From the sequence record MK373782.1: DNA of 64,000 bases; one strand, written 5' to 3'. The notes below the pieces were generated by a model. The model did no database searches and was not told the DNA's origin. It saw only the letters and a program-made list of their open reading frames with translations. This stretch comes from Escherichia phage vB_EcoM_KAW3E185. Position numbers and translations under genes: made by a program. Of this stretch, positions 3,544 to 38,380 are shown one piece after another (the stretch's first letter is position 1; the number at the start of each line of letters is the position of its first letter).

Positions 3544-3618
3544 GTAATTTTCCTCATTATCATTAAACTGGAGGATTTCTCCTCCATAATCGTATCACAA
3601 TAAACGTAAAGCTTTGAC

Positions 3619-4305
3619 TTAGAAGTCGTGAGTAGAATCGGCTTCCATCGCAATAACATAACTTACTTGAGAGCTTTCAAACTTGGCTGCAACTTTATCA
3701 CCAGCTCCCCACAACATTACTTTATAGTTACCTGGCTGGATTTTCATATTAGCCATATTGATTACGAAGTTAAAGTTGTTAGAACCATCATAATCGGTAA
3801 GAGTCAAAGAATACTTAGGACGAGTTAGTCCGGAATCTTCAACTTTATTATAGCCATTGATAACAATTTTACCATCTTTATTTGTAATAGCAATTGTATC
3901 AATCTGAAGACCACGTGAAACTCGAAGCAATTGTTGAAGGTCTTCAGCTTTAATTTCAGTAATCACAGAAGCCACTGGGAATTGAATTGGCTTATTAGGA
4001 AAAACAATGGTGCTCTTGTCGGCAGCAGGCCAATAAACTGTGGAACGTGTATCTGCAATTTTAATATTGCCATCAGTATGCATTGAAATTTCGGCATCAT
4101 CAGACACTAGACTCAAAATGCTTAAGAAGCTATTCAAATCATAAAGTGCTACGTCAAAATCAATTTCATCAGAGATATTTGCTTCCGCATAAGTGGTGCC
4201 ATTAACTGCACGAGTCATAATAAATTTACCTTGACTCAGCAGAATGCCAGAGTTAATAGAGGCAAAGTTTTTCAGAATAGCGATAGTATCTTTAGACAGT
4301 TTCAT
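3619..4305 (-). CDS. 45: sliding clamp gp45 (228 aa)
   Basis: ATG at 4305 gives MKLSKDTIAILKNFASINSGI..., matching recalled T4 gp45 start and length; the ORF track extends 5 codons further upstream. Confidence 0.9.
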   Translation of the reverse strand: MKLSKDTIAILKNFASINSGILLSQGKFIMTRAVNGTTYAEANISDEIDFDVALYDLNSFLSILSLVSDDAEISMHTDGNIKIADTRSTVYWPAADKSTIVFPNKPIQFPVASVITEIKAEDLQQLLRVSRGLQIDTIAITNKDGKIVINGYNKVEDSGLTRPKYSLTLTDYDGSNNFNFVINMANMKIQPGNYKVMLWGAGDKVAAKFESSQVSYVIAMEADSTHDF

Positions 4306-34956: not shown

Positions 34957-35913
34957 TTATTTGAAAGGTTTTACCATATGAAAGTTTTGTTTGAAACGCT
35001 TGACGTAATCGTCGTGTCCTAAGCTTTGGTACATACTTACTACTTTGCTATAATTTTCCCAAGCGAACTCACGGAACCATCCTGATGTGATTGATGTACA
35101 GACCTTTTCAAGGGCCATCATAAAACTATCACGTGGATGGATTTCAAAGTTATTAGGAATCTGAGAACGTTCTAACGCTAGTACACATGATTCTTCGTAT
35201 ACGCCGGCCAATTTGACCATTTCTGGTAATGATTCGAACTTCTCGCGTGAGGTCATGACTTCAGAACCATCTTTCATATAAAATGTATACGCTGGACGGT
35301 CTGTTAGTGCAATGGCTTCGTGAATAGTATCATGATCGTATGTGTAGATGTCATCTTTAAAGAATGCGCTTTTAGAAGTGTCAAGAACCGGGTGAGCATA
35401 ATTCAAAGTTTCTTTCTGGCGTTTCAGCATAATTTCAGTAAGTTCATCGTTCAGTGTAACACCTTTACCACGAAGATACTGAATATGGTTCATAGTCTTT
35501 AAAAAGAATGGATTATTTTTCTTGAAACGATGAGACATCTTAATTGCAAGACATATCTCAGGAGTTGCCCAGTAAAACCCGTTCAAACGGTCTTTAGTCA
35601 AATTTTTCTTGGCGTATTTTAAAAGGTCATAAGAAGACGTGAAATCTTCAGGAGTGAGTTCACCGACTAATTCACGGACATTAGTGATTGCCGGAACAAT
35701 ATATGCTTCAAAATGAGTTTCGCGTCCATTATGGAAGCATTTGAAAACTTGGACATCAGGGTTATCTTGGTGAACATATACACCCATCATTTGATTTTTG
35801 AATGCATTCCAAGAACCTTGGTCCGCAATAAAGTCCCAATCACTATTTTTAATAGCGCTAGAATCAATAAGACCGTGATAGTGAAGTGCACGAGAACCAA
35901 TAACTAACATCAT
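34957..35913 (-). CDS. hypothetical protein (318 aa)
   Basis: ATG start; N-terminal IGSRALHYHG...SDWDF loosely resembles a GS...DxD nucleotidyltransferase motif (weak). Confidence 0.55.
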   Translation of the reverse strand: MMLVIGSRALHYHGLIDSSAIKNSDWDFIADQGSWNAFKNQMMGVYVHQDNPDVQVFKCFHNGRETHFEAYIVPAITNVRELVGELTPEDFTSSYDLLKYAKKNLTKDRLNGFYWATPEICLAIKMSHRFKKNNPFFLKTMNHIQYLRGKGVTLNDELTEIMLKRQKETLNYAHPVLDTSKSAFFKDDIYTYDHDTIHEAIALTDRPAYTFYMKDGSEVMTSREKFESLPEMVKLAGVYEESCVLALERSQIPNNFEIHPRDSFMMALEKVCTSITSGWFREFAWENYSKVVSMYQSLGHDDYVKRFKQNFHMVKPFK

Positions 35914-35941: not shown

Positions 35942-36193
35942 TTAAATTTCACGACATGCGATATTATATTCATCCCAGAGGTCATCATGTGAAGCCTCTA
36001 CCAATGGAACGATTGTACCGTTTATGTCTTCATTATAAGGGCAAATTGTACAGTGCGCATCTTCGAATCGGATGCCTTTGTGTTCAGATTTTTTATAACG
36101 CATATCGAATATCTTTGCAAACTTTTCACGAGTAATGGTTTTAGCAACCACTTTAGTTCCGATACTTTCGTAATAAATCATTGTGGACTCCAT
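35942..36193 (-). CDS. hypothetical protein (83 aa)
   Basis: ATG start. Confidence 0.5.
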   Translation of the reverse strand: MESTMIYYESIGTKVVAKTITREKFAKIFDMRYKKSEHKGIRFEDAHCTICPYNEDINGTIVPLVEASHDDLWDEYNIACREI

Positions 36194-36200
36194 TTGTTTT

Positions 36201-36239
36201 GATAGGACTACTATAACATAGCCCTATCTTGTTGTAAAC
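36201..36239 (-). promoter_or_regulatory. early promoter with inverted repeat GATAGGACTA/TAGCCCTATC (minus strand)
   Basis: GTTTAC-spacer-TATAGT cassette of the same family as at 24685 and 43145. Confidence 0.5.
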
Positions 36240-36243
36240 TGTT

Positions 36244-36441
36244 TTAGCAAGAATAACTAGATGATACCCAGCCTTGAACAGTGATACTATTGTGGGATAA
36301 TGAGATCGCGTCCTGGAGATTCAGACCTGCGTTATCTTCAATCCATAATGTAACTTCTTCGCGTTCTTCTGTTGCAATTTGGAACAGGTTTTCCAGAGCA
36401 GCTACTGCCGTACGTACAGCACAATCTAATTCACGAGACAT
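36244..36441 (-). CDS. hypothetical protein with conserved C-terminal tail (65 aa)
   Basis: Ends ...ITVQGWVSSSYSC; one of three tandem genes sharing the tail. Confidence 0.5.
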   Translation of the reverse strand: MSRELDCAVRTAVAALENLFQIATEEREEVTLWIEDNAGLNLQDAISLSHNSITVQGWVSSSYSC

Positions 36442-36450
36442 ATTGTTTCC

Positions 36451-36723
36451 TTAGCAAGTGTGAGAAGATGCGACCCAACCACCGGTTTCGAGGCTCAGGT
36501 TGTAGTCGTATTGGTAAACGTCAGCCCATTCAGCATAGCCGTTTTTTGCACAACGTTCAAGATCGGCTTTAAGATGTCCGGGTGAATGATAGGTTCCACC
36601 CATACCATAAGCTGGGTACAAGTTGAATGTTGTGTTTTGTTTATCAGCAATTTCTTTGGCAGCCTCAATAGCTGCATAGATTTTTGCTACAGCTTCAGCC
36701 AGTTCGGTTTGTTCTTTAGACAT
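36451..36723 (-). CDS. hypothetical protein with conserved C-terminal tail (90 aa)
   Basis: Ends ...LETGGWVASSHTC. Confidence 0.5.
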   Translation of the reverse strand: MSKEQTELAEAVAKIYAAIEAAKEIADKQNTTFNLYPAYGMGGTYHSPGHLKADLERCAKNGYAEWADVYQYDYNLSLETGGWVASSHTC

Positions 36724-36732
36724 AATGATTCC

Positions 36733-37038
36733 TTAGCACAACGCAGAAGACGAAACCCAAGCACCTTCAGTAATAACGTATCCATTACCTTCACGCTTAA
36801 CATCGCCGCCATTATTTTCAATTTCATCTTTCATCCACTGGGATACGATTTCACCCTTAGGATAATAAGTACGACCGCTACCATAATCACCTACAGAAAA
36901 TGATACGGCATATTGGTCTGCGATCTTTGTTGCTTCTTCTTCGATACGTTCAGCTTGATTCAGAAGTTTATAAATTGCATCTGAAGCGGATTTGGCATCA
37001 TTAAACTCTGGTACTTTAATTTCAATAATCTTACTCAT
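36733..37038 (-). CDS. hypothetical protein with conserved C-terminal tail (101 aa)
   Basis: Ends ...ITEGAWVSSSALC. Confidence 0.5.
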   Translation of the reverse strand: MSKIIEIKVPEFNDAKSASDAIYKLLNQAERIEEEATKIADQYAVSFSVGDYGSGRTYYPKGEIVSQWMKDEIENNGGDVKREGNGYVITEGAWVSSSALC

Positions 37039-37394
37039 TTTCTACATTCCTTAATAAAGTTTTCGATTGTTTCATTTTCACGTTTAGCTAGAAGTTCATT
37101 ATAACTAATCATTTGAGAAGCGTAAATCTTTTTATTTTTCTTGTTATGGTTTATAAAATCGTAGTAAAAATAGACTACAGTACAAAATGATGCGATGGAT
37201 GCAAAGGCTTGGGTATACCGTAAGTCCTGCCATTGGTCTGTGAATCCACCAGTGTTCCCTATAAATCCTAACACAACGCCGTCAATAAGAAATCCAACTA
37301 ATCCAAAGGCAAATCCCATGCCAATACTCATAATAAAAATTAGAATGTTCTCACCAAGAGAAGGCCATACGGTTAAGAGTTGAGGCTTTTGCAT
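37035..37394 (-). CDS. hypothetical membrane protein (119 aa)
   Basis: Glycine-rich hydrophobic N-terminal half; C-terminus IENFIKECRK. Confidence 0.5.
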   Translation of the reverse strand: MQKPQLLTVWPSLGENILIFIMSIGMGFAFGLVGFLIDGVVLGFIGNTGGFTDQWQDLRYTQAFASIASFCTVVYFYYDFINHNKKNKKIYASQMISYNELLAKRENETIENFIKECRK

Positions 37395-37768
37395 CTTATT
37401 TCCTTAACGAATTCCATAGCTTCTTCATATTCATACTTTTTAACAGCCTCGTCATATTGGGCTCTTGCTTTTGCACATTGAATTTTCCATTCACGTACTC
37501 GAGCTCTATAATGACGTCCTTGGTACCAATATCCCACCCAATTAATAGGCATTAATAAAAATGGCACAATAAACGACCCGGCTATAATAAGTAAAAACAC
37601 TGCATCAGACGATATAACTTCACTAGAATCTAAAACAGCTCCTATAATCATAAAGATTAAAAATGCTAAAGCTAAAATAGGGCCAAATAGTACTTCATTT
37701 GGGATTAATTTACGCTTGTATTCATACGCCCAGGGCTTACTTGGTATGTATAGGGTTGGCTTTGACAT
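37373..37768 (-). CDS. hypothetical membrane protein (about 131 aa)
   Basis: ATG at 37768 within the junction cassette; two hydrophobic segments. Confidence 0.5.
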   Translation of the reverse strand: MSKPTLYIPSKPWAYEYKRKLIPNEVLFGPILALAFLIFMIIGAVLDSSEVISSDAVFLLIIAGSFIVPFLLMPINWVGYWYQGRHYRARVREWKIQCAKARAQYDEAVKKYEYEEAMEFVKEIRCKSLNS

Positions 37769-38339
37769 ATTCTCTACATTCCATAATAAATTGCTCAAGG
37801 ATTAAATTGTTAGTGAAATTAGGACTAACAACCATGGTTTCATAAAGCGCATCAATAGCACTTAAAGCATCAACTCTTTTAAGCAAAGGCTTGCCTTCAT
37901 ACATAGTTTCAGAATCGACGATTAACGTAAAGTAATATTTTTTATTATCGACTAGAACTTCTGTATCGATATAAAACATATTAGACCTCAGAAGCTTATC
38001 TCTAAAACCATAATAATCTTCTGAACGTTCACTGATATATTCCCATTCAGTGTTTAAACAACAAACAGACCATGTAGGAGCAACGAAATCAGTGAATCTA
38101 ATATCATGGTCTGCAACTAGTTTAGCAATAGCTCCGATATCATGAATCATAATACCTGGGGCTAATAAAGATTTTCTGCTATGGCTAGCCGTTTTCTCAG
38201 TAGTCTCATAAGAAGACGACCAGTACCATTTACGTCCGGTTGCAACATATCGTAATGAATCAACTAAAGACGTAGGTGGATTTACCTTATCTCGGAACTC
38301 TTCGAACATTGAGTCAATATCATTATTTTGGTTTCGCAT
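37737..38339 (-). CDS. hypothetical protein (about 200 aa)
   Basis: ORF-track start is TTG; ATG at 38339 preceded by GGAG. Confidence 0.5.
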   Translation of the reverse strand: MRNQNNDIDSMFEEFRDKVNPPTSLVDSLRYVATGRKWYWSSSYETTEKTASHSRKSLLAPGIMIHDIGAIAKLVADHDIRFTDFVAPTWSVCCLNTEWEYISERSEDYYGFRDKLLRSNMFYIDTEVLVDNKKYYFTLIVDSETMYEGKPLLKRVDALSAIDALYETMVVSPNFTNNLILEQFIMECREYVKANPIHTK

Positions 38340-38356
38340 GTTAACTCCTTTATTAT

Positions 38357-38380
38357 CCAAAAGGAGGACCGGAGTCCTCC
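38357..38380 (-). terminator. rho-independent terminator (minus strand)
   Basis: GGAGGAC...GTCCTCC hairpin followed by UUUUGG on the minus-strand RNA. Confidence 0.45.

Follow-up and report, generated by a model that had tools for sequence, protein, structure and literature searches.

A family of small phage proteins with a conserved C-terminal tail encoded upstream of a putative nucleotidyltransferase gene

Three adjacent minus-strand open reading frames (ORFs) of 65, 90 and 101 amino acids (aa) in the genome of Escherichia phage vB_EcoM_KAW3E185 (MK373782.1) end in the same short C-terminal tail, which is directly followed by a TAA stop codon. Analysis of the 64 000-nucleotide (nt) stretch that contains these genes (hereafter, the window) and of related loci shows that the synteny and gene order of the tail genes and the gene for a DUF7277+DUF7275 protein are strict; the latter protein is, apparently, an active Pol-beta-fold nucleotidyltransferase of the MenT/AbiEii/ANT structural kind. 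It is highly probable that the small proteins are functional partners of the nucleotidyltransferase, and the explanation that accounts best for the available observations, to which we give marginally better than even chances, is that they are the cognate partners of this enzyme and that the tail engages it.

A sequence-only reading of the locus had described the three ORFs as different proteins with unrelated N-terminal regions and one conserved C-terminal tail, and had suggested that the tail is a common recognition, processing or modification signal. The genes involved, all on the minus strand, are as follows.

36733..37038, minus strand: tail-family gene 1, 101 aa, 'GDYGSGRTYYP' subfamily, phrog_899, equivalent of RB69 ORF138c/139c, ends ...EGAWVSSSALC-stop
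36733..36759, minus strand: tail motif W-V-S-S-S-A-L-C and stop of gene 1 (regular expression scan, DNA alignment)
36451..36723, minus strand: tail-family gene 2, 90 aa, 'AYGMGGTY' subfamily, phrog_899, equivalent of RB69 ORF137c, ends ...GGWVASSHTC-stop
36451..36477, minus strand: tail motif W-V-A-S-S-H-T-C and stop of gene 2 (regular expression scan, DNA alignment)
36244..36441, minus strand: tail-family gene 3, 65 aa, minimal 'MSRELDCA' subfamily, phrog_4882, equivalent of RB69 ORF136c, ends ...QGWVSSSYSC-stop
36244..36270, minus strand: tail motif W-V-S-S-S-Y-S-C and stop of gene 3 (regular expression scan, DNA alignment)
34957..35913, minus strand: gene for the 318-aa DUF7277+DUF7275 nucleotidyltransferase, Pol-beta fold, DUF7277 at residues 2-101 and DUF7275 at residues 120-305

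The shared tail and the family of small proteins

The DNA alignment bears out the view that the tail is conserved at the peptide level: the underlying codons differ at synonymous sites (GTA/GTC/GTT, TCA/GCA/TCG and AGT/TCT/TCT), and therefore, the tail is not the product of a repeated DNA segment, an artifact that the sequence-only reading itself had considered. A six-frame scan of the window for W[VIL][SAT][ST][ST]..C-stop detects only three sites, all of them in the genes listed above, and the same scan detects none in the whole T4 genome, which rules out a chance motif. Homologs lacking the tail, the other outcome that would have undermined the shared motif, can be ruled out as well because homologs keep it, with 133 of the 146 listed new representatives ending in Cys and 123 matching W.[SAT][ST].{2,3}C$.

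These homologs were identified in a profile search of 1.84 billion representative sequences (E<=1e-3), which delineates a family of at least 174 clusters at 50% identity, nearly all 65-120 aa long, with one to six genes per phage. Among 127 members that were themselves selected by the motif, the Trp, S(-4), S(-3) and the terminal Cys are 97-100% conserved (S(-3) occurs in 124), position -5 is S/A/P, position -6 is V/I/L/M/Q/R, the Trp is usually preceded by two Gly, 71 have a single Cys, and the mean net charge is -7.7; the median isoelectric point in the family is 4.5 and the length is ∼88 aa. In a few members, the Cys is followed by one more residue. Outside the tail, the mean column identity in the family alignment is only 17-29%. 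Membership can be expressed as a rule, namely ∼60-120 aa, acidic, with the C-terminus W-x-[SAP]-S-S-x-x-C-stop, to which all three window ORFs conform and which provides a simple sequence criterion for annotating the family. Variants include a two-motif subfamily, with an internal D-W-[LQ]-S-S-x-C-Y-G-E-G in addition to a terminal W-x-x-S-S-C, and a further subfamily with the 'GFW[FY]SSSM' form of the motif.

The claim of unrelated N-terminal regions survives only for the 65-aa protein, the body of which has no detectable relationship to the other two, and the description as different proteins with one tail fails for at least two of the three, which are paralogs of one family. The 90- and 101-aa proteins both match phrog_899 and align with each other over 73 residues (BLASTP E 2e-6). 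When the family profile, with the tail columns cut and sequences >40% identical to the window proteins removed, was compared with all window ORFs, the tail-less bodies of the 101-aa and 90-aa proteins were recovered with E-values of 2.2e-21 and 1.5e-18, respectively, and the tail-less body of the 65-aa protein with an E-value of 5.9. A profile-profile comparison of the tail-less 65-aa subfamily using hhalign yielded a P value of only 0.018, although a helix followed by a strand aligned in the equivalent position. Judging from these comparisons, the 90- and 101-aa proteins are clear paralogs, and the 65-aa protein, which belongs to the family by tail, size, charge and position only, is either a minimized, highly diverged member or has the tail alone in common with the others. 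The 65-aa subfamily is present in 251 phage records, with orthologs that keep the tail (SWVSSSYEC, GWQSSSLDC); orthologs of the 101-aa gene are found in Dhaka-, Karam- and Aeromonas phages. In the RB69 record (AY303349.1, 69737-70040), the ortholog of the 101-aa gene is split into ORF138c and ORF139c (two tblastn pieces, 71-aa product), a split that reflects either a frameshift or an error in the sequence of this record. On balance, the three window genes would seem to be diverged paralogs within a large, phage-restricted family of small acidic proteins.

Searches of Pfam, NCBIfam and PADLOC with the small proteins gave nothing above noise, and sequence profile comparison with the PDB returned only coiled-coil or designed-helix noise. 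None of the T4 genes nrdC.3, nrdC.11, e.2-e.8 and tk.1 is a counterpart. Long family matches scanned for revealing domain fusions contain no known domains, and P0240, a metagenomic protein of 953 aa retrieved with a profile E-value of 1.7e-4, is a probable false positive, a helicase with five HA (PF03457) repeats that matched because its 'KTNNGKDYD.NG.INLG.W' segment resembles 'GDYGSGRTYYP...G.W'. The family is absent from the full-text literature found, in which most subscription journals are not covered, so that its absence from the literature at large is unproven. Outside the family, the e.6-like 207-aa protein of the window (37737-38360, minus strand) contains, at about residues 40-55, an internal 'GRKWYWSSSYETTEK' segment similar to the W-x-S-S-S motif of the tail; T4, where the tail family is missing, has e.6 too.

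Family members begin with an amphipathic helix, continue with a beta-hairpin ('YGMGGTYYP') and an acidic segment that varies among them, and end with the last strand and the tail, G-W-[VILM]-[SA]-S-S-x-x-C-COOH. The AlphaFold2 (AF2) model of the 90-aa protein, with a predicted local distance difference test (pLDDT) score of 88.5, includes a helix at residues 3-29, a hairpin at 32-46, helices at 48-60 and 65-73, and the strand GWVA at 81-84, which is the third strand and pairs with the hairpin. The SSxxC end has the lowest pLDDT in the model, 74-78. Because G-W-V belongs to the last beta-strand of this model, part of the tail conservation is structural. The low confidence of the end itself is consistent with an exposed functional tip, and the invariant Ser-Ser...Cys tip is more likely to be a functional surface.

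Linkage to the DUF7277+DUF7275 gene and identity of the enzyme

In 26 of the 26 tail-linked loci, one to six family genes lie upstream of, and are co-directional with, a DUF7277+DUF7275 gene; in none of these loci are they found downstream of the enzyme gene or on the opposite strand. In the window, the tail genes are located 331-820 nt from the enzyme gene, the 65-aa gene being the nearest, at 331 nt. Six distant phages fetched via tail-protein matches (IME08, PG7, a Klebsiella phage, two Aeromonas phages and the non-Straboviridae Klebsiella phage FKP3) each carry a DUF7277+DUF7275 gene just downstream. Starting from enzyme homologs, tail ORFs were identified upstream in three metagenome contigs, five phage lineages (SKA64, Pseudomonas PN09, Ralstonia RSP15, jumbo phage Munch and Acinetobacter Lazarus), a Tegunavirus and five contigs of metagenome-assembled genomes (MAGs). 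In the reverse test, five tail proteins were chosen regardless of context, and all five have a DUF7275 (PF23940) gene at most 1 kb downstream; the other 21 loci come from Mosig-, Dhaka-, Karam-, Teguna- and Lazarusvirus, Aeromonas phages, Phapecocta-/Justusliebigvirus, Pseudomonas Otagovirus, RSP15, Munch, and marine and MAG contigs. The T4 genome has neither the tail family nor the enzyme gene.

Tail genes were not found near six remote enzyme homologs, those of DSS3_PM1, Streptomyces phage Wakanda, Gordonia phage Cucurbita, Vibrio phages K460 and VH7D, and Alteromonas phage PT11-V22. Immediately downstream of the tail-less enzymes of the Streptomyces, Gordonia and Roseobacter phages, there is a small ORF with a 'GWY.SY.GG / GYYDSWEGG' segment (locus L020, 3594-3893; L021, 3887-4357 and also 3600-3890; L019, 4217-4609), the product of which is possibly a partner analogous to the tail proteins, carrying a related Trp/Tyr-Ser motif.

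The 318-aa protein encoded in the window scores 97.2 bits against DUF7277 and 265.6 bits against DUF7275, with a Pfam gathering cut-off of 27. In the alignment of the enzyme family, G6-S7, D25-x-D27 and E69, which comprise the Pol-beta nucleotidyltransferase signature, are kept in nearly all homologs, and K125-x-x-H128, H194-D195-x-x-H198, E240-E241, E248-R249 and the 'KVCTSITSGWFRE' block are invariant as well. The protein combines the features by which Pol-beta enzymes are recognized, namely hG[GS]-x(9-20)-D-h-[DE]-h, a third carboxylate on a neighboring strand and the alpha/beta nucleotidyltransferase fold, with a MenT-like bi-lobed fold that includes a catalytic Lys helix; the best fold matches of the enzyme model are MenT1, ANT(2'') and MenT3. 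By sequence, it does not belong to DUF1814 (PF08843): there is no Pfam match beyond the two DUFs at E<=1, no real match in PADLOC or NCBIfam, and no match in the PDB. Two more specific identities were rejected, that of RlaP, given the lack of a PF10127 match at E<=1 and the irregular adjacency to RNA ligase (Rnl2 is directly beside the enzyme gene in 2 of ∼32 loci), and that of the nucleotidyltransferase of the RB69 arabinosyl-DNA pathway, which is a different gene (gp52:53). Database labels of DUF7275 homologs vary, from 'DefenseFinder protein' in Acinetobacter phage phi1_092060 (PQ885451.1, 92656-93225) to 'putative nucleotidyltransferase' in Lazarus and Konradin; the Lazarus copy matches no PADLOC model.

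The enzyme family includes 2242 protein clusters and is represented in 734 phage records. Among 185,579 species genomes, only five loci were detected, all in phage-like MAG contigs, and therefore, this is a phage gene rather than a cellular toxin-antitoxin module. In some unrelated phages, genes for Rnl2 ligase, PNKP, metallophosphoesterase, YqeY, Sir2 or NAMPT are located within a few kb of the DUF7275 gene. The positions of these RNA-repair and nicotinamide adenine dinucleotide (NAD) genes are L016 4006-5028, L019 830-1810, L014 1-283, L023 552-1478, L008 4195-4974, L017 4646-5389, L022 501-926, L025 7706-8357 and L036 1008-2663. This gene neighborhood, which is not constant, hints that the enzyme operates at RNA or transfer RNA (tRNA) ends or in a conflict over NAD.

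Comparison with the six tail-less remote homologs points to a candidate docking site for the tail. These homologs keep the catalytic and core residues, apart from E69, retained by a single one of them. R129, R165, H174, C272, S277 and R281 are replaced in five or six of them and are kept in 26 of the 26 tail-linked enzymes, with the exceptions of K129 in L015 and S174 in L022; R129 is adjacent to the catalytic K125/H128 helix. The interpretation of these six residues as the tail docking site is only suggestive because the signature is confounded by phylogenetic distance. Cys243 was considered as a partner of the tail Cys and rejected, its conservation not extending to every tail-linked locus.

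Possible roles of the tail

The proposal of a common recognition, processing or modification signal stands insofar as the tail is a shared, conserved element in strict linkage to the enzyme gene, and has to be qualified in that part of its conservation is structural. The only recurrent partner of the tail genes is the nucleotidyltransferase gene, which lies outside the segment covered by the sequence-only reading. The small proteins have no signal peptide, are acidic and are predicted to be soluble. None of the three contains a lipidation-type box: the Cys is terminal rather than at -4, as in CaaX, and there is no lipobox after a signal peptide.

The physical interaction, the part that the tail plays in it and its biochemical outcome are what we infer here. 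The members of the family would be the cognate partners of the nucleotidyltransferase whose gene lies just downstream, and the G-W-V strand, a structural element, would hold out the exposed S-S-x-x-C end, which would engage the enzyme near its active site; the chances of such engagement appear about even. Two modes of engagement can be envisaged: the tail might serve as a pseudo-substrate or regulator that gates the enzyme, as MenA1 blocks MenT1, or it might be a true acceptor, with the Ser or Cys being nucleotidylated. The variable bodies of the one to six paralogs would give each of them a different specificity. Covalent modification of the tail Ser or Cys by the enzyme appears unlikely; analogies for it are provided by MNT-HEPN, by GlnD-PII and by those fold matches that are hydroxyl-directed ANT/Lnu enzymes. 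The existence of multiple paralogs with variable bodies is easier to reconcile with the acceptor mode, or with an adaptor role, than with a simple antitoxin. A broader and similarly doubtful scenario is phage-wide tagging, whereby a nucleotide or a short chain would be attached to the tail Ser or Cys, the bodies would target different host components, for example, tRNA-directed defense toxins or RNA-repair steps, and the tail would act as a warhead or decoy. If true, this would be the first dedicated protein substrate set for a phage Pol-beta nucleotidyltransferase, and modification of the tail would represent a new kind of protein nucleotidylation.

Three alternatives to tail-enzyme engagement can be considered. 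The tail could be conserved for intrinsic structure only, with the small proteins sharing a pathway with the enzyme, such as a common RNA or host target, and the tail never touching it; the Ser/Cys cap would then stabilize the last strand, or the terminal Cys would mediate dimerization or metal binding. The pairing of the GWVA strand (81-84) with the hairpin in the AF2 model and the invariance of the Trp, as expected of a core residue, are in line with this possibility, and in the 71 of 127 members with a single Cys, only an intermolecular disulfide or a metal site would be possible. We nevertheless consider it rather improbable: a solvent-exposed cap would not usually be conserved as S(-4), S(-3) and C(0) are, at 97-100% against ∼17-29% elsewhere, the tail persists in the 65-aa subfamily despite an unrecognizable body, W-x-S-S-x-C is repeated at an internal, linker-like position in the two-motif subfamily, and the tail is the part of the AF2 model with the lowest confidence.

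Even less probable is the possibility that the tail is read by a host machine or another phage machine, as a degron, an adaptor tag, a targeting signal or a mimic of a host C-terminus, so that the synteny reflects co-regulation only. Like known C-terminal degrons, the tail forms the very end of the protein and leaves the carboxylate free, as is the case in 133 of the 146 representatives; moreover, one tag is common to several paralogs with different bodies. The motif, however, is unchanged in phages of enterobacteria, Acinetobacter, Pseudomonas, Ralstonia, Aeromonas and marine bacteria, its only constant companion is the phage's own enzyme, and the extra residue after the Cys in a few members argues against strict carboxylate recognition. 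We know of no matching host motif.

The least credible alternative is that the small proteins are precursors akin to ribosomally synthesized and post-translationally modified peptides (RiPPs), the Ser/Cys tail of which would give rise to a lanthionine-, thiazoline- or microcin-C-like peptide-nucleotide product: Ser-Ser-Ser-x-x-Cys is chemically able to form a dehydroalanine/Cys ring, the combination of a conserved recognition part with a variable part resembles precursor logic, and a nucleotide-transferring enzyme is encoded nearby, but the 26 loci contain no recurrent LanB/LanM, YcaO, radical-SAM, protease or exporter genes, the proteins are predicted with high confidence to be folded whereas a RiPP core peptide is unstructured, the enzyme has the Pol-beta fold rather than that of a ThiF/MccB-type adenylating enzyme, and the context is that of a lytic phage.

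Surroundings of the locus and comparison with known systems

The phage is a Mosigvirus (RB69-like, T-even), and the segment 35900-37450 of the window is 99.5% identical to phages mobillu and APCEc01. The locus is flanked by the lysozyme/nudix genes on one side and by the tRNA cluster on the other, that is, it occupies the 'e.x' accessory region of T4. The remaining features of the immediate neighborhood are the following.

35942..36193, minus strand: 83-aa ORF, phrog_3723, equivalent of RB69 ORF135c, between gene 3 and the enzyme gene
36210..36238, minus strand: candidate sigma-70-like promoter, by match to the consensus only, TTTACA-17-TATAGT with extended TG, in the interval that separates gene 3 from the 83-aa ORF
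37035..37394, minus strand: gene for an e.3-like membrane protein (RB69 annotation e.3), immediately upstream of gene 1

Both internal junctions between the tail genes have the form 'TGC TAA GGA A.. ... ATG', with a 9-nt spacer, and the stop codon of gene 2 overlaps the Shine-Dalgarno-like TAAGGAA of gene 3; this layout fits tandem duplication and translational coupling. The stop codon of the e.3-like gene overlaps the start of gene 1 (ATGA), but the conserved module of other phages does not include this gene, which is context only. The 83-aa ORF contains three Cys and lacks the tail motif; it is kept in Mosig- and Dhakavirus but not in the module of Aeromonas, Pseudomonas and other phages, and is a lineage-specific filler between the tail genes and the enzyme gene. 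Further upstream, the e.4-like predicted membrane protein (window 37373-37798, minus strand) is annotated as 'sulfurtransferase' in phage JK36 (L001, 7474-7848), a label that looks spurious given the lack of Pfam support (the best match, to an unrelated family, has an E-value of 0.12). A perfect 7-bp GC-rich hairpin, GGAGGAC-CGGA-GTCCTCC, at window 38363-38380, between a 202-aa gene and the e.6-like gene, is followed by a T-rich stretch on the minus strand and is terminator-like.

Three anonymous accessory ORFs of a T-even phage lead to a two-component module shared by hundreds of sequenced phages from at least seven phage lineages, with hosts from several phyla, and the invariant eight-residue tail offers an immediate experimental handle. 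MenT-type nucleotidyltransferases are bacterial toxins that disable the acceptor ends of tRNAs, and a phage-owned MenT relative with tail-tagged partners would be relevant to the question of how tRNA-directed immunity is controlled or countered by phages.

Other systems share individual features with the phage module. In the HEPN-MNT type VII toxin-antitoxin system, MntA poly-AMPylates a Tyr of HepT, and GlnD uridylylates PII; in both cases, a Pol-beta enzyme nucleotidylates a hydroxyl side chain of a small cognate protein that is encoded by an adjacent gene or in the same regulon. The acceptors there, however, are Tyr residues in folded loops rather than a C-terminal Ser/Cys tail, and the phage small proteins show no sequence or fold relationship to HepT or PII. 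In microcin C, the MccA heptapeptide is adenylated at its C-terminus by MccB, so that a nucleotide is attached to the C-terminal residue of a ribosomal product, but MccB is ThiF/E1-like, MccA is only 7 aa long, and the system includes export and immunity genes, none of which applies to the phage module. ANT(2'') and LnuA act on small-molecule substrates and have no partner proteins; a further conserved domain at the C-terminus distinguishes the window enzyme from these. RlaP (PF10127) resembles the phage enzyme in being a phage-borne Pol-beta nucleotidyltransferase of phage RNA-repair systems (PMC7824862, PMC12776372), and in some phages, the DUF7275 gene is also found beside Rnl2 RNA ligase, PNKP or metallophosphoesterase genes. 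The adjacency of the DUF7275 gene to Rnl2 is, however, occasional, and RlaP lacks a tail-bearing partner family.

The closest known arrangement is MenA1-MenT1 of Mycobacterium tuberculosis, although, by sequence, the phage module is not a member of the MenAT family and its enzyme falls outside DUF1814. MenA1 is a 68-aa helical protein that is encoded upstream of MenT1 and blocks the MenT1 active site, and its C-terminus is disordered in the complex with MenT1 (PMC10435456). The window enzyme is 100-130 aa longer, with a conserved extra helical domain at the C-terminus (H194-D195-H198, E240-E241, KVCTSITSGWFRE), and contains a canonical DxD, in contrast to the auto-phosphorylatable S/T-x-D on the MenT1 side. 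The phage partners, in turn, come as one to six paralogs with an alpha/beta structure, as opposed to the two helices of MenA1, and share the invariant C-terminal W-x-S-S-S-x-x-C that MenA1 lacks. It is this invariant tail that, together with the sets of paralogs, the extra C-terminal domain of the enzyme and a distribution essentially confined to phage genomes, sets the phage module apart from MenAT.

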